Origin: Candidatus Babeliales bacterium | GTDB lineage: Bacteria > Babelota > Babeliae > Babelales > Vermiphilaceae | Assembly: GCA_045863215.1 (NCBI GenBank) | Contig: BTUB01000001.1 | Coordinates: 1-34,247, forward strand | DNA: 34,247 nucleotides | Direction: 5' to 3' | Shown: positions 9,676 through 20,984 of the stretch, piece after piece | How the letters are laid out: every line of letters begins with the position of its first letter | How positions within the stretch are numbered: the stretch's first letter is position 1 | Program-made: the position numbers and the translations under genes | Notes under the pieces: model-generated | What the model was told of the DNA's origin: nothing | Seen by the model: only the letters and a program-made list of their open reading frames with translations | Databases searched by the model: none

Positions 9676-9960
9676 ATGAGATTTATATTAAAAATTATTT
9701 CTTTAGTAATGATCTTTGTAAGCATTACTAATTTTGCACATATTTATCACCAAACAAAAAGTTACGATCGGGTTGGCTATTGCTGTTATCGAGAAGATGG
9801 CACTTTTGTGCCTCAACAAACCATTCGTTGGGCAGATGATTTTGCCGATGAATGGCCACGACGCGGTGTTACCAATGAAGGCATAGTAGGCTTTGCTGAT
9901 ATGTCTGAACAACCGCTTATATCAGGCTTTGAACGAAGTGCTTACAACACTCCAAAGTAA
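9676..9960 (+). CDS. small secreted/membrane-anchored protein, unknown function
   Basis: AGGAG upstream. 94-aa ORF with a hydrophobic N-terminus (ILKIISLVMIFVSITNFA). It is the first of four same-strand genes (9676-11960). Confidence 0.5.
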   Translation: MRFILKIISLVMIFVSITNFAHIYHQTKSYDRVGYCCYREDGTFVPQQTIRWADDFADEWPRRGVTNEGIVGFADMSEQPLISGFERSAYNTPK

Positions 9961-10008
9961 TAAAAATGGAATAGGTAAAATAGACAAAAACGAAAATAGG
10001 AGAGTGAT

Positions 10009-10944
10009 ATGAATAAAAAAGTAATGAGTATAATCCTCCTGCTTCTTGCAGGAATTAACGGCCTTTCATTTGCACGAGGTGCTCGTGGTGGAGGCTTTGG
10101 TGGTGGCCGTGGTGGCTTTGGTGGAGGTCGCGGTGGAATCGCACGCGGTGGCGGATTTGCTGGTCGCGGATTCGGCGGGGGTAGAAGCTTTGGCGGTGGC
10201 CGTAGCTTTGGAGGAAGAAGTTTTGGTGGCGGTCGTAGTTTTGCCGGTGGAAGATCCGGATTTGCACGCCCTTCAGGATTCACCAGATCTGCAGGAATTT
10301 CAAGGCCAGGCGGTATCGCAACTCGTCCCGGGGGCATTTCTTCTAGGCCCGGTGGTATAAGCCGTCCCGGTGGAATTGGTACCCGTCCGGGTGGCATTTC
10401 TAGGCCAGGCGCCAGCACTCGTCCCGGCGGAATTTCAAGACCCGGCACTGGTACTCGTCCAGGCAGACCGGGTGATAGACCAGGAAGACCGGGCAACAGG
10501 CCAGGTAGACCAGGACATCCAGGAGATAGACCAGGTAGGCCTGGTGGACGTCATCGTGGAGACAGATTTGGTCGTCGTGGTGATAGATTTGGCCGTCGAG
10601 GAGATCGTTGGGCAGGTCGTGGCAGAAGATGGTGGGGCGGCTATTGGAATGGTGGCTGGTATGCACCAAGCTGGTGGTTATGGGGTTCATTGCCATTGTT
10701 AATCGGTGGCTTATGGTATTACAACGGTCTCACTTACCCGCAATGGCAAGAATATGCTGAATCAGATCCAGAGGTATACAATTATTACACTACCTATGTA
10801 GTACCTGCATATGAACAATATCAGGCTAATCCTTCATCAGTACAAACTAAGGATGTAGAAGTTCCAGAATATGATGATGAAGACTACAATTCAGAAGATG
10901 AAGAAGTAGAAGAAATAGAAAATAATGGAAACATTATTACGTAG
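10009..10944 (+). CDS. secreted, membrane-anchored Arg/Gly-rich repeat protein (RGG/GAR-box-like ectodomain, acidic tail)
   Basis: AGGAG upstream. After the signal peptide MNKKVMSIILLLLAGINGLSFA come four successive repeat modules: RGGGFGGGRGGFGGGRGG; GGGRSF x4; RPGGIS x~8; RPG(D/N/H) x~6; and RRGDRFG x3. These are followed by a W-rich/TM-like segment (WWLWGSLPLLIGGLWYY) and a D/E-rich C-terminus. Terminator downstream. Confidence 0.75.
   Translation: MNKKVMSIILLLLAGINGLSFARGARGGGFGGGRGGFGGGRGGIARGGGFAGRGFGGGRSFGGGRSFGGRSFGGGRSFAGGRSGFARPSGFTRSAGISRPGGIATRPGGISSRPGGISRPGGIGTRPGGISRPGASTRPGGISRPGTGTRPGRPGDRPGRPGNRPGRPGHPGDRPGRPGGRHRGDRFGRRGDRFGRRGDRWAGRGRRWWGGYWNGGWYAPSWWLWGSLPLLIGGLWYYNGLTYPQWQEYAESDPEVYNYYTTYVVPAYEQYQANPSSVQTKDVEVPEYDDEDYNSEDEEVEEIENNGNIIT
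10075..10630 (+). repeat. in-frame tandem repeat region (four repeat families) inside gene 10009-10944
   Basis: 15-21-nt periodic units encode GGRSF, RPGGIS, RPGD and RRGDRFG. The region is locally far more GC-rich than its surroundings. Confidence 0.7.
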
Positions 10945-11997: not shown

Positions 11998-12029
11998 GGC
12001 CTCTTTTTAGACTATAAAAGGGGCCTTTT
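11998..12029 (+). terminator. hairpin + T-run after gene 11298-11960
   Basis: GGCCTCTTTT ... AAAAGGGGCC (10-bp stem with one G-U pair) followed by TTTT. It overlaps the last codons of the recombinase ORF on the opposite strand. Confidence 0.4.
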
Positions 12030-13637
12030 CATTGCCAAGACTTTACAATTAGAAAAATAAACACTCCCGTAGTATATCAGCCGGTAACGCCATACTATAG
12101 CTGCCAGGCCCCGGTATATGAAGTGTATCAACCCGTAATTTACCGCCCCGTGACAAAAAAACCACACTTTGGGTTCTCTTTTGGCACGCCATACATGACG
12201 ATCAGTACATTCTAGTATCAAATTAAAGGGCGAATGAGCCTCCCAGACGAGCTTTTCATCTTTTAGGCTCAAGTTCTGAAGTATCAGCTTGATTAATTGC
12301 CGTTTTTCCTCAACTTCAGAACTCATAAAAAGCTCATACGCTCGGGAAGTCAGATTCAGAACGTATTTAGCGGTAATATAATAATTGTCTTCTGCTTCTT
12401 GTAATTGCTCAAGGCGAATACTAATATCGGTTACTTGATCACGTAATGAAGTGTAAAATTTGTCATAAGCGCTCTCAGTAATTCTCCCTTTGAGTTTATC
12501 TAGGTAGAGATTATCCATCATCTTGGTGATTGTTTTTTGTTCTTGTATAAGCTTGTTAGTTTCTTTTTGATGGAATTCCATTTTGTCTTGATGAGAAGCA
12601 TTTAGTGTTTCAGTAAGTTCATCAAGAATTTCTGTAGGTAGCTGTAAGTTTTTAAATACAGCGCTCAATTGGCGGGTAATTTCTTCTTCTCGCAGCCATT
12701 TTGCGTCATGCTTGCCATTGTATTGGGTGCAGTGATAATACACATACCCTTTATGTATTTCGGGCGTAATAGATAGGCCGCAATGAGCACATCTAATTAA
12801 TCCGCGATAGATATAGGGCTTACCGGCAAATTTATATTTCTTTTTAGCAAAACTATTTTTCACAGCTTGAACATCCTCAAAAAGGGTGATGCAGATAATG
12901 GGAGGATATTTATGGGGATATAGTTTGCCTTTCACCAGCATTTGACCGTGGTAAAAAGGATTAGCCAGAACCTTACCCAAGTATCCTTTAGGCCATACGA
13001 TGCCATAATCAGCTTTTAATTTATTACAGGCCAGCTCTAATGAATAGGCGCCAGTGCCATACCATTCGAATACTTTTTGAATGATACGGGATTCATACTC
13101 ATCCACAACAACATCTGATTTACCATCTTCAGTTTTAACATTCTTATATCCGTAGGGAGCTTTAGCTAGCCATTCCCCACGGCGGAGCTTAGCCTCAATC
13201 GCGCGGCGCACGTTATCACTAATAGCATCTGAATAATATTTTGCTAATCCTAAGCTGATACCAAAATGAAATTTCTCAGCAGCAGAAATACGGCTATTGA
13301 TTATTTGCCCATCAGATACAAAATGCAATTCAACCTCATCTCGCAAAGCTTTTTCATACAGTTCAGAAACCCGTTTATCAAACATATTACGAGATAGGCG
13401 ATCAACCTTATCGCAGCATACGGCAATCTTTTGCTTTTGCTCGATTACAAAATCAAGAATGCCATCAAACTCATCGCGTTGATTTTTATAAGCACTTTCA
13501 TCAAAGCTAAAGCTTTTAAGGATCTCTAAGCTTTTATTTTCGCAATATCTTTCTAGGCGCAGCATTTGCGCAGGAAGTGAATTGCCGGCTTCCTTTTGTT
13601 CTTCAGTGCTTACACGGGCGATGAGAATAGCTTTCAT
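12012..13637 (-). CDS. large serine recombinase (resolvase domain + recombinase domain + zinc ribbon + coiled coil)
   Basis: The N-terminus MKAILIARVSTEEQ carries the catalytic Ser motif. Other elements are VDRLSRN, the recombinase-domain block PYGYK, the zinc ribbon CAHCG...YYHC and a long coiled-coil region. The last ~60 residues (VWFFCHGAVNYGLIHFIYRGLAAIVWRYRLIYYGSVYF...) are compositionally aberrant, so the true C-terminus is uncertain. Confidence 0.9.
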   Translation of the reverse strand: MKAILIARVSTEEQKEAGNSLPAQMLRLERYCENKSLEILKSFSFDESAYKNQRDEFDGILDFVIEQKQKIAVCCDKVDRLSRNMFDKRVSELYEKALRDEVELHFVSDGQIINSRISAAEKFHFGISLGLAKYYSDAISDNVRRAIEAKLRRGEWLAKAPYGYKNVKTEDGKSDVVVDEYESRIIQKVFEWYGTGAYSLELACNKLKADYGIVWPKGYLGKVLANPFYHGQMLVKGKLYPHKYPPIICITLFEDVQAVKNSFAKKKYKFAGKPYIYRGLIRCAHCGLSITPEIHKGYVYYHCTQYNGKHDAKWLREEEITRQLSAVFKNLQLPTEILDELTETLNASHQDKMEFHQKETNKLIQEQKTITKMMDNLYLDKLKGRITESAYDKFYTSLRDQVTDISIRLEQLQEAEDNYYITAKYVLNLTSRAYELFMSSEVEEKRQLIKLILQNLSLKDEKLVWEAHSPFNLILECTDRHVWRAKREPKVWFFCHGAVNYGLIHFIYRGLAAIVWRYRLIYYGSVYFSNCKVLAMKRPLL

Positions 13638-13818
13638 GAATATGTACCTGCTGTATGGTTGAAAAGTTTAGAACCGTAAGCAGTGTAATAAGAACAGAGA
13701 AATTTTCCAGAACCAATATACGTCCATCCATTTAATAGACATAAAGCACCAATACTGCGTTTTAAATTATAGCTGCGCATAAATTGCGTGTAAGTATATA
13801 AATAAAAATACCCGAAAA

Positions 13819-13856
13819 GGGGAAAGTGGGGGCTTGTGGGGGAGTATATTGTGGGG
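13819..13856 (+). other. G-quadruplex-type motif / triple GTGGGG repeat in the recombinase-nuclease divergent intergenic region
   Basis: GGGG-AAAGT-GGGGG-CTTGT-GGGGG-AGTATATTGT-GGGG: four G-runs of 4 or more with loops of 5, 5 and 10 nt, in an otherwise AT-rich spacer. Confidence 0.4.
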
Positions 13857-13996
13857 TCTATGCTGGCTTGGTCTTATAATAATTTCAAATAGAAACTTAA
13901 TGCCGTTTGGTACCCGATATTCGCTCAAGAGTTTATATTTTTTTAGATTAAGATAAAATAAATACAAAGGTTATAATCATTGTAAATGCAGGTTAT

Positions 13997-14812
13997 ATGA
14001 TTTCCAAATACAATCCTCAAAGAAAGCGAAATCTATTTTCTTTCTTTTCAGATAAGGCATATAAAATTAGTCGTTCAAAAATCGAAGATTTTATAAAATG
14101 TCCCCGATGCTTTTATTTGGATAGAAAATGCGGCACTAAGCAGCCACCATCTTTTCCATATACTCTCAATAATGCGATTGATGCTCTTTTAAAAAAAGAA
14201 TTTGATCAATATAGATTGAAAGAGGAAAGGCATTCTTTATTGATTCAGCATGGCATTGATGCGATTCCTTTTTCACATCCTGATTTAGAAGAATGGCGAG
14301 ATAATTTTAAGGGAATTAAATTTCATCATATCGCTACCAATTTAATTATTAGTGGGGCCATGGATGATATTTGGATTAAGCCTGATGGCGAACTAATTGT
14401 TGTTGATTTTAAAGCAACTAGTACAACCAAAGAGATTACTCTTGAAAAAAGGGATGCTTATAAAAGACAGCTAGAAGTCTATCAATGGTTGTTACGTCAA
14501 AATGGATTTAAGGTTTCCAATATTGGTTATTTTCTAATTTGCAATGGAGATTCAAGCGAAGCTGGATTCACGGGCAAACTTTCTTTTGATTTTTTATTAC
14601 TTCCACACGAAGGGAATGACTTTTGGATCGAAGATGCTTTAGTGCAAATAAAAGATTGTCTTGGCAAGAATACCATGCCTGCTATGTCAGAGAATTGTGA
14701 TTACTGCAAGTATTGGGAAGCTGTTAAAAAGCATATGTATTCCCATAACTTGTTACTGGAAAATTATTCCCGCGCACTTCCGAGATCAATACAGAAATTA
14801 TTTAGATTATGA
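13997..14812 (+). CDS. PD-(D/E)XK nuclease, Cas4/RecB-like with four-Cys cluster
   Basis: GAMDDIW (motif D), LIVVDFKAT (D-x-K) and QLEVYQWLL (Q-x3-Y) occur in the order typical of RecB/Cas4-family nucleases. An N-terminal C-P-R-C plus a C-terminal C-D-Y-C fits a Cas4/AddB-like Fe-S or Zn site. Confidence 0.7.
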   Translation: MISKYNPQRKRNLFSFFSDKAYKISRSKIEDFIKCPRCFYLDRKCGTKQPPSFPYTLNNAIDALLKKEFDQYRLKEERHSLLIQHGIDAIPFSHPDLEEWRDNFKGIKFHHIATNLIISGAMDDIWIKPDGELIVVDFKATSTTKEITLEKRDAYKRQLEVYQWLLRQNGFKVSNIGYFLICNGDSSEAGFTGKLSFDFLLLPHEGNDFWIEDALVQIKDCLGKNTMPAMSENCDYCKYWEAVKKHMYSHNLLLENYSRALPRSIQKLFRL

Positions 14813-14962
14813 TGTTTAAGAGATTTCAAAAGTAATACAAAAATAATGATAAGAATTCTTTATTATTACTATTTAAACAATAGTATACTTAGATACATAG
14901 CATATACTTTTTTATTTTTAGCGATTTTCTCTATTGTGTATCAAAGAGCAGGAGATTCTTTC

Positions 14963-15871
14963 ATGTTACAAACAAGCAAAAGTTCAACGAACAATGAACA
15001 AGTTACGTTTATTGACCTTTTTGCGGGAATTGGAGGATTTCATGTTGCATTACATCAGCTGGGTGGCAATTGTGTATATGCAAGTGAGTGGGATGAACAT
15101 GCGCGTAAAACCTATGAAGCAAATTTCTCCAAATTAAGTCCTGAATTATTTAAAGCAGGCTTATTTAGGGGCGATATTACACTGGATGAGAATCAGGCTT
15201 GTATCCCTGAAAATACAGATATTTTGTGTGCAGGTTTCCCATGCCAGCCCTTTAGCCAAGCAGGTGTTAAAAAGGGGTTCAATGAAACCAGAGGTACACT
15301 TTTTTTTGAAATAGCAAAAATAATAAAAGATAAGCGGCCCAAAGCCATTTTTCTTGAAAATGTACGTGGTCTTTTAAATCATGACAATGGAAAAACATTC
15401 GAAGTTATTCGCAATATCTTAGAAATTGAACTTAATTACACCATTTACTATAAAATCATAAAAGCTTCTGATTATGGATTGCCTACTCACAGGCCTCGTA
15501 TTTATATCATAGGCTTTAGAAGCGATGTTAAATACAAAAAAGATTTTAAGTTTCCTAATCCAATCCCTTTAAAATTTAACATGTCAGATATATTTAATAT
15601 GCCCTGCAATAAAGATGTCGGATATACTTTGAGAGTTGGTGGTAAGGGTTCAGGTATAAACGATAGAAGAAATTGGGATTCATATTTGGTAGGTGGAGCT
15701 GTTAAAAAAATAACGCCCTACGAAGGGAAAAAAATGATGGGTTTCCCTGACGATTTTATGTTTCCTGTAACTAATGCTCAGGCAATGAAACAATTAGGAA
15801 ATAGTGTTGCGATTGATCCGATCAGATTAACATCAGAAAAAATAATCGAAATTTTAAGGAAGTCTGCATGA
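14963..15871 (+). CDS. DNA (cytosine-5) methyltransferase, M.HpaII-like (probable CCGG specificity)
   Basis: The track start at 14846 adds a hydrophobic extension. The ATG at 14963 sits 8 nt after AGGAG. Motif I is FIDLFAGIGGF, motif IV GFPCQPFSQAG, motif VI FLENVRGL, motif VIII RPRIYIIGF and motif X QLGNSVA. The blocks SEWDE.A.KTYEANF and TRGTLFF match what I recall of M.HpaII. Confidence 0.92.
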   Translation: MLQTSKSSTNNEQVTFIDLFAGIGGFHVALHQLGGNCVYASEWDEHARKTYEANFSKLSPELFKAGLFRGDITLDENQACIPENTDILCAGFPCQPFSQAGVKKGFNETRGTLFFEIAKIIKDKRPKAIFLENVRGLLNHDNGKTFEVIRNILEIELNYTIYYKIIKASDYGLPTHRPRIYIIGFRSDVKYKKDFKFPNPIPLKFNMSDIFNMPCNKDVGYTLRVGGKGSGINDRRNWDSYLVGGAVKKITPYEGKKMMGFPDDFMFPVTNAQAMKQLGNSVAIDPIRLTSEKIIEILRKSA

Positions 15872-16932
15872 TACTTAAAAAAGGCAATAAAGGTGAATGG
15901 AGTGAGCTTTACGCCTTATTAAAAATATTATCTGATAAAGTTCTTTATTCTGCCGACGAAAATCTTGCATTAATTCCGAAAGCTTTTATAAAAGTACTTA
16001 ATGTTAAGCTGGAAGAGAAAGCTAATTTAATATACGAAATAGATCATATTAATGATCGAATTATCGTAAAAGAATATAATAATGTTATAGCATCTATACC
16101 TATTATTAAAATTTCTTCTAAATTATCGGCTATCCTAAAAAAAATTAAAATTGGCGCAGCATCTAAAGGCGCTTTTGAATTACTTGAAGCTCAAGAGCTC
16201 ATGACTGAAATTCATGCCAAAAAGCTTAAATCGGCAAGCACTTTAAAGGCTGATATGTATGTTACATATGAGGATCCAAGTACAGGTATGCAGCCGACAG
16301 AAGGGTTTAGTGTAAAGTCGCAGATAGGTGGAATGTCTACTTTGCTGAATGCTTCAGGTTCGACGAATTTCGAATTTAAAATAATTGAATCCATGCATTC
16401 TGAAAAAATAGGAAAAAAACCCTTAATAAGCTTAGAAAACATTTTGGCACCCAATCAGGTATTAGAATTTGTTGGTGTTTCTAATTCGAATTTTAAAGAG
16501 AATTTAGAAATGATTGATTCTCATATGCCATTAATTATTGCTGTAATGATAAAAGGATATTATTTGGGGTTTGGAAAAACTATTTCTCAATTAACCGAAT
16601 ATATTAAATTAATTAACCCATTAGAAAAATCTAAGTCGTCACATTTTTATGAGCATAAGATTCAAGAATTATTAAGAGCTGTTGCTTTTGGTATGCAGCC
16701 TGCAAAAATATGGACGGGTAATTATGAGGCACATGGCGGATATATTATCGTAAAAAAAAATGGTGAGTTAGCTTGTTATCATACTTATGACAGGGATAGT
16801 TTCGGTAAATTTCTCTATTTAAATACCAAATTTGAAACGCCCAGTCGTTCTAAACATTACTTTGGCGAGATTGAGCAAAGAAACGGCTCTAAATTTATTA
16901 AACTTAATTTGCAAATCAGATTTACGAGCTAA
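15868..16932 (+). CDS. type II restriction endonuclease, HpaII family
   Basis: The start overlaps the methyltransferase stop (ATGA). At 354 aa it is the size of R.HpaII. The N-terminal block KGNKGEWSELYALLKILSD matches the HpaII-family N-terminal signature as I remember it. An M.HpaII-like methylase lies upstream and vsr downstream. Confidence 0.72.
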   Translation: MILKKGNKGEWSELYALLKILSDKVLYSADENLALIPKAFIKVLNVKLEEKANLIYEIDHINDRIIVKEYNNVIASIPIIKISSKLSAILKKIKIGAASKGAFELLEAQELMTEIHAKKLKSASTLKADMYVTYEDPSTGMQPTEGFSVKSQIGGMSTLLNASGSTNFEFKIIESMHSEKIGKKPLISLENILAPNQVLEFVGVSNSNFKENLEMIDSHMPLIIAVMIKGYYLGFGKTISQLTEYIKLINPLEKSKSSHFYEHKIQELLRAVAFGMQPAKIWTGNYEAHGGYIIVKKNGELACYHTYDRDSFGKFLYLNTKFETPSRSKHYFGEIEQRNGSKFIKLNLQIRFTS

Positions 16933-16933
16933 T

Positions 16934-17353
16934 ATGGAAAATGCTCCAAATATAAGAAGCAAAATGATGGCAGCAGTAAAAAATAAAAATACTGCTCCTG
17001 AAATTAATGTACGTAAGGCTTTATACGCTAAGGGCATGCGATACAAATTGCATAATAAGAAATTACCTGGCAATCCTGATTTAGTATTTGCTAAATACAA
17101 AGCAGTTATATTTATTAATGGATGTTTTTGGCATAAACATAATTGCCGCCTGGTTCAAATTCCCCAAACAAATCAAGAGTTTTGGATTGATAAATTGAAT
17201 AAAAATGCCTACAGAGATGAAATGAATCTTGCTAAATTGCAAGAAATTGGATGGCGAGTAAAAGTTATTTGGCTTTGTGTTTTAAAAAATAAAAAGACTT
17301 TTTCTTCAGCAGAACAACTAGATGATATTGTTCAGTGGATAAAGCAATCATAG
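16934..17353 (+). CDS. vsr: very-short-patch repair endonuclease
   Basis: The track ORF starts at 16832, inside the REase gene. The ATG at 16934 lies 1 nt after the REase stop. The blocks NTAPEINVRKALYAKGMRYKLH, LPGNPDLVF and VIFINGCFWHKHNC are the canonical Vsr blocks. Confidence 0.9.
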   Translation: MENAPNIRSKMMAAVKNKNTAPEINVRKALYAKGMRYKLHNKKLPGNPDLVFAKYKAVIFINGCFWHKHNCRLVQIPQTNQEFWIDKLNKNAYRDEMNLAKLQEIGWRVKVIWLCVLKNKKTFSSAEQLDDIVQWIKQS

Positions 17354-17362
17354 CTCATATTC

Positions 17363-18481
17363 CTAAAAAGTTATTTGAGTAATTTTTTTAAGAATATGAG
17401 TTCGAATTATTTCAAAGAGTCTAGTAATATTAGAAAGCTTTATTTCTTTTGCATCTGCGTTAAGACGATTCCAGTCTCTTTGGTTGCGCTTGGATAGCAT
17501 GCCTCTCAATTCACGCACATTAACTATTTCAAGTGCTTTTGCCAATCCAAACATCTGTAGGATTTTTTTAGATCCAAGTTCAGGGTTATTTAAAATAATA
17601 TCACTTAGTAAAGCTTTATCGCTTACAGCCTTATAATTAAGCCAGACGGGCCGTTTGCTTCCTAACTCATCCAGATAATGCAAAAGAACTTTCTTAGAAA
17701 TAGCTGGCTTGAATAAGCTTTTTAAAGTTAAATTTGATTTAATCCCAAGTTTTGCAAATATTTGCTTCATCTTTGCCCGTTTATTAAGCCGCACTTCCAT
17801 GCGTAAAACCTCTAGCTTCTTTTTTTTGCGTAATCGTGGGAACATCTCAAGCTGGATTGCATTATCTTTCTCTATAGAGCGTTTTTCGCTTTGTTTTGCC
17901 TTTTCTAAATCCTTGAGCTTATCGTAAAAGACTATTTCATAAGAATTGCAGTGCCATTTATAGCTATGGCCTTCATTACGATAATCGGTTTGATTAGTAT
18001 CCAAACTCATCTTTATATTCGATTCCTTGATCTTATTTATATAGTGATAGGGGGTTGAGCCATCTTTAAGAATAATATTCTTGGAATAATGCACCGCAAC
18101 TATCGGAGCACGAACTAAATCAGCAGGAGCCACAATAACCTCCATTTGGCCTAAAGTATCAGATAGCCGTTGTAGTAGAGGCTGCAGATCTTTCCCTTTA
18201 AGCTCTTGGAAATTATTACCATAAAAGAGCTTGGGTAAGGAAAGTTCAACTTTCAATACTATATCAAGTGTATTACGTGTATTGGTTCTATAAGCAAGTG
18301 TGAGCCTTGGCTTATATATACCGGCAAGTAACTCTTTCTTAGTTGGATTTTGTTTTGATTGGATTCCGTGAACGGCACTTGATCTATTATTTGTAATCCA
18401 TCGTGCTGATGGCACAAATTTATCTGGATCAGTAATTTTATACATATCTGAAGAAAGAAGTAATACTACAGTATCGATCAT
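17363..18481 (-). CDS. rolling-circle replication initiator / relaxase-like protein (phage gpII - Rep_trans-like)
   Basis: The N-terminus MIDTVVLLL resembles the MIDMLVLRL start of filamentous-phage gpII. SLPKLFYGNNFQEL, YEIVFYDKLKDLEK (candidate catalytic Y-D-K) and LRMEVRLNK resemble conserved blocks of gene II/X and Rep_trans families. Motif-level recall only. Confidence 0.55.
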   Translation of the reverse strand: MIDTVVLLLSSDMYKITDPDKFVPSARWITNNRSSAVHGIQSKQNPTKKELLAGIYKPRLTLAYRTNTRNTLDIVLKVELSLPKLFYGNNFQELKGKDLQPLLQRLSDTLGQMEVIVAPADLVRAPIVAVHYSKNIILKDGSTPYHYINKIKESNIKMSLDTNQTDYRNEGHSYKWHCNSYEIVFYDKLKDLEKAKQSEKRSIEKDNAIQLEMFPRLRKKKKLEVLRMEVRLNKRAKMKQIFAKLGIKSNLTLKSLFKPAISKKVLLHYLDELGSKRPVWLNYKAVSDKALLSDIILNNPELGSKKILQMFGLAKALEIVNVRELRGMLSKRNQRDWNRLNADAKEIKLSNITRLFEIIRTHILKKITQITF

Positions 18482-18588
18482 GGCTGTGCTTAAATACTAA
18501 GGTGTAGATAATTATTAGTTGTTTAAGATAACCTGCAACTTAGGAAATACAAGATATTTTTAATTCAATATGTTAAGGAGATGGTTGA

Positions 18589-19557
18589 ATGAATAAGTAT
18601 GTTGGAGTGCTATTAATTGGTATCTATTTTAATAGCCTGTTTTCAATGCAAATGCCTGAAGGTCAGCAGCACTGGCAAATTTCAAATCAGTCACCTCAAG
18701 CCATTGTGATTTGGTATCCCATTTTTATGGGCGGAGGGAAAGATGTTTGGGAGCGTGAAAAATTAGGTGCCATGGAAGATGGCAAAGATTCTATAGTTAG
18801 AGCAACTGATAGACCAATGTATATTTATACCTTGGCAGGAAGCTATTCTATTTATGTAAAGAATAATACGTTATATATTGAAAAAGAATCTTTAGAGGAT
18901 AAAATATCGAGTCCTCCTGTACAGCACCCAATGCATTCAGCGATGGATCTTATTGTGCTAGTAAATCCTAATGGAACTGTTTCTATTGTTGATAGATTAA
19001 GAAAAGAGCACCCAGCTTATTTAAATACTATCACTCCAAAAGTTATTGAATTAATTTTATTGGCATTGGAAAACAAAAGTTACGATTTAAAAGTGTTATC
19101 CACTGAGCATCTAAAAGATATTTTAAGACTTACTGAACACACATCTGCTGGTAATTTTCATGCTATTAAGGATGCAATAGAGAAATCAAAATATTTTACC
19201 AGTATGAACCCAATTCAACAGCGCAGATATCTGAGCAATATTGATTCGTTTGTAAGAAGCCATTTAGATTCTTTAAAAGCCAAAGTTCAAAATGAACTAA
19301 AAGCCAGAGATACTGATGGGACTTTGGTTCAAATGCTGCAAGGAGAGGTAGGTGGATCACCATATCCACTGAATATACTTTCGGTTGATGTAAAACAGGG
19401 ACTATTGAGTGCAATAAACAGACTTGAAGAAAACACTGCGCAGCAGCAAGAAATTTCACGCGCTATGGGTACTAAAAATGTGGAGCAATTGATGCAACAT
19501 GCAAAGCAGCTTAAGCAAAAAATCGAGAAGCATTTGAAAGAGATTCTGCCTTACTAA
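18589..19557 (+). CDS. hypothetical protein with hydrophobic N-terminus, helical C-terminal half
   Basis: AAGGAG upstream, a 322-aa ORF and a strong terminator downstream. No motif recognised. Confidence 0.55.
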   Translation: MNKYVGVLLIGIYFNSLFSMQMPEGQQHWQISNQSPQAIVIWYPIFMGGGKDVWEREKLGAMEDGKDSIVRATDRPMYIYTLAGSYSIYVKNNTLYIEKESLEDKISSPPVQHPMHSAMDLIVLVNPNGTVSIVDRLRKEHPAYLNTITPKVIELILLALENKSYDLKVLSTEHLKDILRLTEHTSAGNFHAIKDAIEKSKYFTSMNPIQQRRYLSNIDSFVRSHLDSLKAKVQNELKARDTDGTLVQMLQGEVGGSPYPLNILSVDVKQGLLSAINRLEENTAQQQEISRAMGTKNVEQLMQHAKQLKQKIEKHLKEILPY

Positions 19558-19581
19558 TAAAGTGATATTTAAATTGAAGAG

Positions 19582-19608
19582 GGCTCGCAGTTGTTGCGAG
19601 CCTTTTTT
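19582..19608 (+). terminator. intrinsic terminator
   Basis: GGCTCGCA-GTTGT-TGCGAGCC followed by TTTTTTATTTT, 25 nt after the stop at 19557. Confidence 0.7.
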
Positions 19609-20148
19609 ATTTTGCCCTAAAAGGGGATCTTTAGCTTTTCTTAATTTTGCTCTGTTTGTTTCTTTGCCCGGAGCGCTAATACGCCTATCAATTTGAACAA
19701 GCAAAGCCACAAATGCAGCAAATTTTTTACGATCGTTAACATTCAAAACAGGATTCGCGGGAGGGCGAATTGCTGCTCTTCTATTTCTACGCAACATATA
19801 CGCTCGATTCTAGACGCTCGAGTATCATCTATAGCTGATCAATACCAGCAAAAGGGTAAATTATTTTTAATTAAGAGAGATTGGGATTATTCGCTTTTAC
19901 TTAGGCAGGTATCCTGCTGTGTATGCCAACACCCGAGTTGTGAGATCAGATTCAGAGATCTGAGGAGATTTAACTGGTTCATTGCCTATTCCTTTGATGC
20001 AAAAACAGCTTATTACAATTGCGAGAAGTGTATTCAGTATTTTCATGGATGGCAAGAGAAAAATTTTTCTTTTTTCATTGTGTCATTTGATTTTATGCCT
20101 CACGCTTATTACCAGTAAATTTTAAATCTTTTTTAAAGGGACCCAATT

Positions 20149-20724
20149 ATGAATACACAAAATACAAATACAAAAATATTAACCAAGCCTTTTATATCAC
20201 AGGGGGAGAGGTATCAATTGGTTAAAAATTTGCACAATATACAGCAAAAATTAAATGAAGCATCAGGTCTTGCTGTCGGAATAGAAACTCGAATACGATT
20301 GATTGGTGAGCTGTCAGAGCCTCTTAGGGTCAAGCTTAAAGAGATATATAAGAATAATGATCCAAAAATCACGAGAAAAAGAGCTTCATCTCCTAATTAT
20401 TGGAAATGTGAGTTATGGATGCTGGAAGAAGCCGTTATTGAGGTTTATAAAAAAGAGTTAGAGCCAAATGAGGTGAGCGCCCTGGAGAATTTTAGAGATT
20501 TGAGAAATAGTTTGCTCCATGGGAATTTGATCAACCTTTTGACACTAATGGGTATACCAGCAGAAGGGCGTATGATGTGCCCTAAAACTGGAAAAAGAAA
20601 TATTTTAACAGATGCAGACATCAAAGAATCAATTATTTGTATTGACAATAAGGGCGGCCTGGAGAAATTTCGCCCATTAGGTTTTGAAGTTATGCAAATC
20701 TTAGAAAAGATCATTTGTCTTTAA
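20149..20724 (+). CDS. hypothetical protein with HEPN-like R-x4-H motif
   Basis: 191-aa, mostly helical-looking ORF with AAGGGA upstream. The motif FRDLRNSLLHGN fits the HEPN RNase signature R-(N/H/Q)-x3-H. No adjacent nucleotidyltransferase or antitoxin-like partner. Confidence 0.45.
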   Translation: MNTQNTNTKILTKPFISQGERYQLVKNLHNIQQKLNEASGLAVGIETRIRLIGELSEPLRVKLKEIYKNNDPKITRKRASSPNYWKCELWMLEEAVIEVYKKELEPNEVSALENFRDLRNSLLHGNLINLLTLMGIPAEGRMMCPKTGKRNILTDADIKESIICIDNKGGLEKFRPLGFEVMQILEKIICL

Positions 20725-20730
20725 TATCAT

Positions 20731-20760
20731 GGTGTTTTCAGTTTTAAAGCTGAAAACACC
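20731..20760 (+). terminator. 11-bp-stem hairpin after the HEPN-like gene
   Basis: GGTGTTTTCAG-TTTTAAAG-CTGAAAACACC followed by GTTTGG. The T-tract is weak, so terminator function is uncertain. Confidence 0.4.
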
Positions 20761-20984
20761 GTTTGGATGTGCGTTAAGCTAAAAGTGTATTTAATTTGGC
20801 CTTTACTGAACGTGTCAACTAAGTTACCCATGGCGCAGGATTTAGCTTTTGGTCATAAAAAATATAAAGGCGTGATTTGAAATAGAATCGTGACTTTAGA
20901 AATGGAAGTAGATAAAATTACATTTACCATAAAAACATAACCATTAACAAAAAATAGTTATTAACTTTTTCTAAATGACATCAT

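Follow-up and report, generated by a model that had tools for sequence, protein, structure and literature searches.

A Rep-LSR element of Dependentiae with restriction-modification cargo and an attachment site within its recombinase gene

Introduction

In a 34,247-nucleotide stretch of DNA from a Candidatus Babeliales bacterium (assembly GCA_045863215.1, contig BTUB01000001.1, positions 1 to 34,247; this whole stretch is called the window), genes for a large serine recombinase (LSR), a putative rolling-circle initiator (Rep) and a restriction-modification (RM) system are found in one block. This locus raises the question of whether the block is a mobile element, and if so, where it begins and ends and how it would move. 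An earlier note, made from the window alone, had proposed an integrative element at 12012-20760. We find that window 12186-20827 is a real, precisely delimited mobile element, and that it is very probably an integrated copy of a site-specific, self-replicating element. It belongs to a large and apparently undescribed family, to which we gave the name Rep-LSR elements of Dependentiae.

Small integrative elements with a site-specific recombinase, a rolling-circle replication (RCR) initiator and defence cargo are known as a general kind. Distinct in the present case are a gene II-like Rep family that is absent from Pfam as such, an LSR that targets tRNA 3' ends, an attachment (att) site inside the recombinase gene, and the host phylum.

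Results

Limits of the element and evidence of movement

Multiple alignments of both element ends were made between the window and the related loci L026/L027, L108 and L110/L111, of which L026/L027 had been reached via Rep homologues and L110/L111 via database homologues of a 322-aa orphan protein encoded in the element. The first DNA comparison with L026/L027 gave a homology break at window 12174-12187 and a second homologous block ending at 20827; junction alignments with three related copies set the element at 12186-20827, a length of 8,642 bp. At the left junction (12186..12187), homology to L026/L027 and L110/L111 begins exactly and the flanks differ, the other loci having a tRNA-Glu gene there. 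At the right junction (20826..20827), homology to L026, L027, L108 and L110/L111 stops exactly. The plus strand reads ...ctcttttggc-AC-gccatacatgacg... on the left, where the P arm of the element's att site (attP) starts (gccatacatgacgatcag...), and ...gtcaactaagtt-AC-ccatggcgcagg... on the right, where the host sequence ccatggcgcagg... then follows. The comparison with relatives, which the earlier note had itself suggested, thus placed both ends exactly; an element does lie at the locus as claimed, but its ends are not 12012 and 20760.

The sole sequence common to both junctions was the dinucleotide AC at 12186-12187 and 20826-20827 (GT on the coding strand of the element). Such a trace is the one left behind by a serine recombinase that makes a 2-bp staggered cut. 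For the same reason, the absence of long junction repeats does not speak against integration. Long direct repeats sought as att sites were mostly not found, as expected for a 2-bp crossover, and only tandem junctions surfaced in that search; element ends in the family were located instead by a conserved motif of the P' arm of attP and by a protein-level search for the recombinase tail described below. The identity block at tRNA-site junctions of relatives was 6-12 bp.

The copy in L110/L111 shares with the window the order LSR, PD-(D/E)XK nuclease, methylase, R.HpaII, Vsr, Rep, orphan and small open reading frame (ORF), with 87% DNA identity over 7.9 kb. It ends at the same two junction positions as the window element and is inserted in the 3' end of a tRNA-Glu gene beside mgtE. 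Related elements with different cargo occupy the same tRNA-Glu site in L026/L027. In L001, the closest syntenic relative found (~68% aa identity), no element was present between the Cys-rich gene and the cyclase gene that border the locus. The same block, therefore, does not sit at the same locus in all relatives, since L001 is without it and the L110/L111 copy lies elsewhere. Contigs from three metagenome runs of one study reproduced both integrated junctions of the window, and GC content was 31-35% in the cargo as against 37-42% in the flanks. Together, the domains, the exact junctions and the 87%-identical copy at another site bear out the proposal that an LSR, a rolling-circle-type initiator and RM cargo are combined here in an integrative element, and these comparisons indicate that the element is, or recently was, mobile.

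No tRNA gene was detected by ARAGORN at the host attachment site (attB) of the window copy, either in the window as it is or with the flanks joined. The flank at the crossover resembled the 3' half of tRNA-Glu at 15 of 21 nt, which was not significant by shuffling. We read the window copy as sitting in a secondary, non-tRNA attB between the gene for a Cys-rich secreted protein and an ankyrin gene.

The recombinase gene and its detached 3' end

In the integrated state, the recombinase ORF (12012..13637, minus strand) encodes 541 aa with Resolvase (PF00239, E = 3.6e-20, residues 3-156), Recombinase (PF07508, 8e-07) and Zn_ribbon_recom (PF13408, 4e-07) domains, the last two scoring above their gathering cut-offs, and it matched the integrase family phrog_95 at 3e-66. 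Scores against the XisF and CcrA/B/C models of NCBIfam were sub-threshold only. The motif with the catalytic serine, ARVSTEEQ, aligned with RVSTTNQ of the TP901-1 integrase catalytic domain. Residues 1-484 (12186-13637) are encoded by the element, and residues 485-541 (12012-12185, 57 codons) are a read-through into the host flank that stops within the terminator of the neighbouring Cys-rich gene. Relatives of the LSR are 484-495 aa long, and the C-termini of 36 of them were compared. Over residues 1-484, identity to the L026 copy was 97.5% for the protein and 92% for the DNA, a difference indicative of purifying selection; the recombinase gene of L027 had 89% DNA identity.

At the far end of the element, also on the minus strand, lies a stretch of 32 codons, NLVDTFSKGQIKYTFSLTHIQTVFSALKLKTP (20730..20825; stop codon 20727-20729), which falls in frame with LSR codon 484 when the two ends are joined and which is also the P' arm of attP. 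The crossover is within codon 484, and the joined ends encode a 516-aa protein. Both the tail ORF and the two att arms are intact in the window. In all tRNA-integrated copies the LSR carries a conserved ...KPFDLILxCSDxQx, followed by W (TGG, the complement of the CCA of the tRNA) and a few arbitrary residues read from the tRNA. The opposite ends of the elements, 24 in number, encode a conserved peptide of ~32 residues, (W-R/L-x)-LVDxFRNxEIKFxISLxHIQTVFSxF..., that begins exactly at the junction, and its frame is that of the LSR, via the common in-frame TGG, in every element with both ends known.

We considered the alternative that these far-end 96 nt are kept as a protein-binding site and terminator hairpin and are not coding, so that their agreement with the LSR frame would be coincidental. 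The stretch does contain both the P' arm and a bidirectional terminator-like hairpin (ggtgttttcag...ctgaaaacacc, 20731..20760, after the gene for an R-x4-H protein), and either could be conserved as DNA or RNA. However, over the first 87-90 nt of 18 ends, taken from elements whose Rep is only 53-80% identical, frame 0 had a single stop, the natural end of the short tail of L052, and each of the other frames had many more (54 and 56). Synonymous changes made up 34% of the codon differences across the same ends in the tail frame and 12% and 6% in the others, the third codon position varied most, and codons alternated synonymously for Arg (AGG/CGG/AGA) and Leu (CTA/TTA/CTG/TTG). With the frame matching that of the LSR in each of the elements where this could be followed, a purely non-coding role for the stretch is highly improbable.

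The tail was missing from the end of all intact recombinase genes in integrated family members. Joined, attP-like junctions were seen as the joints of tandem arrays in L026, L029 and L106, where the recombinase 3' end runs into the P' tail of the next element and an attP-like junction is thereby formed inside a chromosome; at L106 5828-7510, a whole divergent recombinase ORF of 572 codons reads straight into the tail of the next element. Tandem arrays or their remnants were noted at L026 7808-8004, L029 ~4190-4260, L031 2912 and 6411, L046 349 and 1307, L057 362-420 and L106 5828-7510. At L098 4069-5662, the recombinase is contiguous with its tail, as in the un-integrated configuration, but frameshifted; the contig was considered as a possible circle but has no terminal overlap, and we do not claim L098 as a circular episome.

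From the alignments, attP (P arm, GT, P' arm) is entirely coding, and integration swaps the C-terminus of the LSR. Since the crossover is in codon 484 and the tail at the far end, the full 516-aa enzyme would be encoded only by the circle or by an upstream member of a tandem array. The predicted circle junction on the element's coding strand is ...CATGTATGGC-GT-AACTTAGTTGAC... (also given as ...GATCGTCATGTATGGC-GT-AACTTAGTTGACACGTTCAG...), and the predicted empty site on the plus strand of the window is ...TCTCTTTTGGC-AC-CCATGGCGCAGG... (also given as ...GGGTTCTCTTTTGGC-AC-CCATGGCGCAGGATTT...).

We tentatively suggest, as a possibility that we do not favour over others, that the split recombinase gene might be a built-in state sensor or directionality switch of the serine integrase. 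A circle or an upstream tandem copy would then make the 516-aa enzyme with its tail, competent for attP x attB recombination, and an integrated copy would make a tail-less enzyme that ends in arbitrary tRNA or flank residues and has altered activity. The tail-less enzyme may be silent, in which case the element would stay locked in until a circle or tandem copy supplied the full enzyme; alternatively, it may favour attL x attR. In either form, the tail would replace or complement a separate recombination directionality factor (RDF). If true, this arrangement would be the equivalent, in bacteria and with a serine recombinase, of the 'suicidal' tyrosine integrases of archaea, in an element family by which RM systems are shuttled between uncultivated intracellular hosts. 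A phmmer search of the PDB with the reconstituted 516-aa LSR matched only the TP901-1 catalytic domain, which left the tail without structural placement.

The host side of the P' ends was also similar across different tRNAs and genomes, reading ..GAAGCYTTRGCSAAGTATGGCG... This sequence was found just beyond the P' ends in L027 (~6530-6565), L028 (~7765-7793), L031, L035, L063 and L070, and could be a conserved attB half-site, a relic of an older element or a motif downstream of tRNA genes.

Rep and its relationship to gene II proteins

Rep (372 aa; 17363..18481, minus strand) is a core gene product of the family. The Pfam family PF05144 (Replication-associated protein G2P N-terminal; Phage_CRI) was matched by 12 of 103 diverse Rep relatives of 30-58% identity, with a best E value of 5.9e-07, and one close homologue, P0116, carries a precomputed PF05144 assignment. 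An AlphaFold2 model of Rep built on the 103-sequence alignment had a predicted local distance difference test score (pLDDT) of 93.6 and a predicted template modelling score (pTM) of 0.92, and superseded an earlier run on 13 close sequences (pLDDT 55). When this model was compared with BFVD using Foldseek, five full-length matches were obtained (E 2.7e-8 to 7.3e-6, probability 1.0), one of them named Replication-associated protein G2P [Inoviridae sp.]; their TM-scores were only 0.37-0.52, and the targets are themselves predictions. Foldseek against the PDB gave nothing significant (best E 0.066, unrelated), and a profile of the 13 close homologues gave noise only against the same database.

Across the 103 sequences, D3, T4, E93, K134, N135, G171, Y186, K188, Q210, E229 and R231 were invariant, with Y186 and K188 lying in the motif FYDK. 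The nicking tyrosine of f1 gpII is at a position comparable to Y186, which we treat as a lead only. From the family link and the predicted fold we conclude that Rep is likely to be a remote gene II-class rolling-circle initiator. The protein had previously been described as gpII/Rep_trans-like. The first half of that description is supported by the PF05144 matches and the G2P folds, but the second is not, as PF02486 was absent from the 103 sequences and no RepD-type fold was retrieved from the PDB.

The resemblance of the Rep fold to G2P of Inoviridae could mean that the element is a degenerate inovirus-like prophage, or that it is a satellite and relies on a helper inovirus for packaging, and the phiRSM filamentous phages indeed pair gene II with a serine recombinase that acts at a tRNA-Ser 3' end (PMC4471427). 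We consider such an origin very unlikely. No Zot/pI-type morphogenesis ATPase or coat-like gene was seen among the window ORFs or among the genes listed for related loci; in minimal family members, Rep and LSR are separated by 42-103 bp and accompanied by little else; and the recombinase belongs to the large type and not to the resolvase/invertase type. Rep also found no tblastn match in a phage collection of 50,697 records, nor in a plasmid collection.

A second alternative, which we regard as doubtful, is that Rep acts mainly as a relaxase, and that the element is an integrative mobilisable element (IME) without autonomous replication, which exploits conjugative or type IV machinery belonging to the host or to another element. 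Rolling-circle initiators do act as relaxases in integrative and conjugative elements and IMEs of Firmicutes (MobT/Rep_trans; PMC5704250), the present element is without transfer genes of its own, and the family is spread over genomes and sites. Yet no origin of transfer, coupling protein or conjugation gene was seen in the loci with Pfam-labelled genes, the fold relatives of Rep are phage replication initiators, and replication and relaxase roles are compatible with each other. Rep could replicate the circle, mobilise it, or do both, and we put forward a relaxase role as a conjecture only.

The Rep-LSR family in Dependentiae

Among 5.8 billion proteins, 1643 Rep homologues were found at E <= 1e-3; those with a named source were from Dependentiae or Babeliales, with several per genome. 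Clusters at 50% identity contained 1201 representatives. For comparison of the family, 80 metagenome loci were retrieved. The LSR gene lay downstream of Rep on the same strand in 24 of the 27 loci with at least 7 kb of sequence downstream of Rep, at a distance of between 42 bp and 6.8 kb. Full Rep and full LSR matches occurred together in 36 loci; in 29 of these, a called tRNA gene on the opposite strand (Asp, Glu, Asn, Arg, Pro or Gln) overlapped the 3' end of the LSR gene, and in one more, L057, the tRNA gene abuts the LSR stop codon. The family core consists of the small ORF, Rep and, at the element end, the LSR. Elements with both ends located were ~5-14 kb long. Decayed copies were present as well, the LSR being frameshifted in L098 and partial in L049, L086 and L087. 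A search of the literature on recombinases, mobile elements and integrases in Dependentiae or Babela returned nothing that describes the family.

Between Rep and LSR is a slot that acts as a cargo bay and often carries RM systems of types I, II, IIG or III, and the reading of the locus as a defence island therefore holds at the level of the family. A type III system was found in L079/L081 and L089; a type I system in L084, where HsdR (14409-17861) is fused to a C-terminal Schlafen/AlbA_2 domain (PF04326, 1.9e-15); an Eco57I-like type IIG enzyme in L088; and a C5 methylase with an unknown gene in L082 and L106. Cargo of other loci comprised a YhcG-type PD-(D/E)XK protein, a Schlafen/AlbA_2 protein, SNF2-methyltransferase giants and a MerR regulator.

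The RM operon of the window element

The gene order and coordinates that had been reported for the locus were recovered by ORF listing and profile searches. Between the divergent LSR gene and cargo operon is an intergenic region (13638..13996) in which a promoter scan found promoter-like sites for both sides. It holds a G-run motif (13819-13856) that is not kept in the 87%-identical copy L111.

The first cargo gene (13997..14812, plus strand) encodes a Cas4-like PD-(D/E)XK nuclease of 271 aa (PF12705, 4.9e-14), which is also present in L110/L111 and has a 37%-identical homologue upstream of Rep in L072/L073. It is followed on the plus strand by a C5 cytosine DNA methylase of the M.HpaII type (14846..15871; PF00145, 4.3e-78) and a type II restriction endonuclease of the HpaII family (15868..16932; PF09561, 4.8e-97, profile positions 1-359 of 359), the two genes overlapping, and by a Vsr very-short-patch repair endonuclease (16934..17353; PF03852, 8.6e-29). 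Methylase, RE_HpaII endonuclease and Vsr form one operon, and all three domains were matched over their full length. The start of Vsr is most likely the ATG at 16934 and not the TTG at 16832 of the longest ORF; its homologue in L110/L111 was called at 128-138 aa. The scan with PADLOC models that the earlier note had envisaged matched Cas4 (9e-10), MTase_II (1.9e-97), REase_II (2.5e-77) and Vsr (1e-35), and gave no match for the 191-aa R-x4-H protein described below.

From family membership only, the RM system is predicted to recognise CCGG. The element contained 4 CCGG sites, compared to 7.8 expected from mononucleotide composition, and the flanks (25.6 kb) 68 compared to 33 expected. In L111 the corresponding counts were 2 against 8.1 expected inside the copy and 12 against 7.5 expected in a 3.6-kb flank. 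This contrast is compatible with the carriage of a CCGG-specific RM system by an element that keeps clear of its own target. The RM module would probably both defend the host and stabilise the element.

In metagenome run X4, from a different study, the methylase region at window 14461-15612 was recovered at ~98% identity (22 differences in 1152 nt), together with only short pieces of recombinase and Rep; the endonuclease, Vsr and most of the rest of the element were almost entirely missing. This region is possibly from a related element with other neighbours.

Other genes of the element and its flanks

The region upstream of Rep that had been taken as a 540-bp non-coding gap proved to hold, on the minus strand, a conserved small ORF with a conserved promoter and leader. 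The gap has 80-87% nucleotide identity to L026, L027 and L111. The small ORF (19456..19797, minus strand), a core gene of the family that was seen upstream of Rep in 10 loci, is conserved over approximately 19600-19797, where DRKKFxxFVxLLVQIDRR is followed by a Lys-rich stretch. By blastp it clustered with 10 ORFs in 9 related loci (two overlapping calls being from L052), it was also found in L108 and L111, and it is fused to Rep in the gene calls P0056, P0077 and P0111. No Pfam family was matched by the product, which we suspect to act in regulation or DNA binding. One branch of the family (L079, L089 and, at 9736-10032, L106) has, in place of the DRKKF ORF, an ORF of the SpoVG family (PF04026, E 1.9e-9) that overlaps the start of Rep.

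The promoter and leader of the small ORF (19798..20148, minus strand) were defined by an alignment of nine elements and a promoter scan, with TTGCCA-17-TACACT at 20055-20027 and a leader of ~230 nt. The leader was assigned to no Rfam family at E values up to 1, two sub-threshold chance matches being returned. This region is a candidate location for regulatory elements or an origin. A plus-strand ORF at 19693-20118 was rejected as a gene; L026 and L027 have only a broken version of the stretch, and the ORF runs antisense to the conserved leader and small ORF.

Two accessory genes of this sub-lineage lie on the plus strand. The 322-aa orphan (18589..19557), which has a signal-peptide-like N-terminus, lies between the small ORF and Rep and occurs in this sub-lineage only, had only two homologues among the 5.8 billion proteins, each beside a Rep homologue and a small ORF (L108 and L110/L111), and it is absent from L026/L027. 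It had been listed as a possible defence component, but it looks secreted and we saw no evidence of a defence role.

The second gene (20149..20724) encodes the 191-aa R-x4-H protein, with the motif FRDLRNSLLHG. It had only 2 homologues in a large protein database, and FRDLRN(S/K)LLHG was kept in all three aligned sequences (those of the window and of the 87% and 46% copies). No PHROG or NCBIfam model was matched, and PF18731 (HEPN_Swt1) was reached only below threshold (E 0.09, 13.5 bits against a cut-off of 27.5). The proposal that the protein is of the HEPN type therefore holds for the R-x4-H motif, but at the domain level it has just this sub-threshold score. An unrelated 338-aa gene takes the place of the 191-aa gene in L110/L111. 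L026/L027 have a HigB-like (Gp49) toxin-antitoxin pair that separates the homologous gene from the end of the element. By these comparisons, the gene is exchangeable.

Outside the element, the cyclase, 6PGD and G6PD genes had their best matches in metagenome-assembled genomes of Dependentiae (50-68% aa identity). By these matches the window belongs to a Dependentiae (TM6/Babeliales)-like genome, and the flanks are chromosomal context, as had been supposed. The corresponding interval of L001 (8976-11042) has three tandem paralogous secreted proteins of 215-230 aa and a 197-aa gene, indicating that this region varies independently of the element.

Discussion

The evidence is best explained if window 12186-20827 is an integrated Rep-LSR element that moves by site-specific recombination and replicates itself. 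The LSR would recombine attP, approximately CTGATCGTCA(A/T)GTATGGC-GT-AACTTAGTTGACACGTTCAG, with the 3' CCA end of a tRNA gene as the normal attB, tRNA-Glu for this sub-lineage, and exchange would take place at the 2-bp GT; the insertion in the window would have used a secondary, non-tRNA site. Integration would detach the last 32 conserved codons of the recombinase. After excision, Rep would nick the origin and maintain or amplify the circle by rolling-circle replication, and it may double as a relaxase.

Several points weigh against this explanation. The window Rep itself had no match in Pfam (E up to 10), PHROGs, NCBIfam, PADLOC or PDB sequences, and its link to gene II is thus remote. Neither an origin nor a nick site was identified by the nine-element leader alignment, Rfam or the promoter scan, and no small Xis- or RDF-like ORF is conserved upstream of the LSR. 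Conjugation and packaging genes, which would provide a route between cells, are absent from the element. A joint corresponding to the circle or to the empty site was not found in the low-depth assembled contigs of four runs, and an RNA-run search yielded only a distant relative. The window copy, given its non-canonical site and the 57-aa foreign tail of its LSR, might be trapped.

The last of these points leads to a further alternative, in which the locus is a fixed, immobile island: a single integration at a pseudo-site that has become a domesticated RM or defence locus, with the LSR disabled by tail loss and read-through. The non-tRNA site, the altered LSR C-terminus, the absence of excision products from the contigs and the decayed copies elsewhere in the family (L098, L049, L086 and L087) would all fit such a history. 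On the other hand, the core ORFs are all intact, as are the tail ORF and both att arms, the 97.5% protein identity of the LSR at 92% DNA identity reflects purifying selection, and a tail-less recombinase is the usual state of every integrated member with an intact gene. We therefore hold a fixed island to be unlikely and retain the mobile Rep-LSR element as the explanation of the locus.

Among known systems, IMEs of streptococci and other Firmicutes carry a gene for a serine recombinase, one for a rolling-circle-type initiator or relaxase, or both (PMC5704250, PMC5357655). Like them, the window element is small, with a site-specific recombinase, an RCR-family protein and few cargo genes, and very short serine-recombinase junction repeats and toxin-antitoxin or RM cargo are reported for them too. 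It also has an integration and excision module of its own, as an IME should, in the LSR and the defined att junctions. It differs in its Dependentiae host and in the placement of attP within the recombinase gene, and no helper conjugative element is known for Rep-LSR elements. Further, serine-recombinase IMEs usually insert within dispensable protein genes (PMC5704250, PMC5357655), whereas the Rep-LSR family targets tRNA 3' ends. The phage phiRSM of Ralstonia is similar in combining gene II-type replication with a serine recombinase at a tRNA 3' end (tRNA-Ser, 13 bp), but it is an inovirus complete with genes for structure and morphogenesis, it has a small resolvase/invertase as integrase and its attP lies between orf14 and orf15 (PMC4471427); the window element is without virion genes, and has a large serine recombinase with attP inside the coding sequence.

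An att site in the integrase gene, and an intact gene only in the episome, are features of the SSV-type 'suicidal' tyrosine integrases of archaeal viruses and plasmids, and recombinases which interrupt the gene encoding them are known only from archaea (PMC8371274). The SSV-type enzymes are tyrosine recombinases whose gene is cut into two large halves (PMC8371274), while in the present case the detached part of the serine recombinase is confined to its last 32 residues, and its catalytic and DNA-binding domains remain joined. Our literature search found no report of serine integrases whose gene spans its own att site. A similar case of att within the integrase gene reportedly exists in IntP/IntX of phage Mx8.

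Pipolins, too, are self-replicating and integrative, often at tRNA genes, and are platforms for exchangeable defence systems, RM among others, but they use a primer-independent PolB and tyrosine recombinases (PMC11551731) in place of the predicted rolling-circle replication by a gene II-like Rep and the large serine recombinase of the window element. The combination of C5 methylase, RE_HpaII endonuclease and Vsr in one operon is that of HpaII RM systems with Vsr; here, in contrast, a Cas4-like PD-(D/E)XK gene precedes the operon, which is carried on a mobile element. In its Resolvase-Recombinase-Zn ribbon architecture, catalytic serine and 2-bp crossover, the recombinase resembles the integrases of A118/LI, TP901-1, Bxb1, phiC31 and SPbeta as well as Ccr and XisF, and it shares with the phage-type large serine integrases an imperfectly palindromic attP of ~40-50 bp. 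Unlike the latter, its attB is a tRNA 3' end, its attP is within its own ORF and no RDF was identified.

The directionality problem of serine integrases is currently handled by RDFs or by engineered fusions. If the detachable tail controls activity or direction, it would be a simple natural answer to this problem. The serine integrases of the family target conserved tRNA 3' ends, and attP/attB pairs for many of their orthologues can be taken straight from genome data. Dependentiae are obligate intracellular bacteria and are usually thought to exchange few genes. The Rep-LSR family represents a large overlooked mobilome in these organisms, with >1,200 Rep protein clusters and up to several copies per genome, and with all major RM types in one defined slot, it offers a concrete vehicle for the flux of defence genes in Dependentiae hosts.

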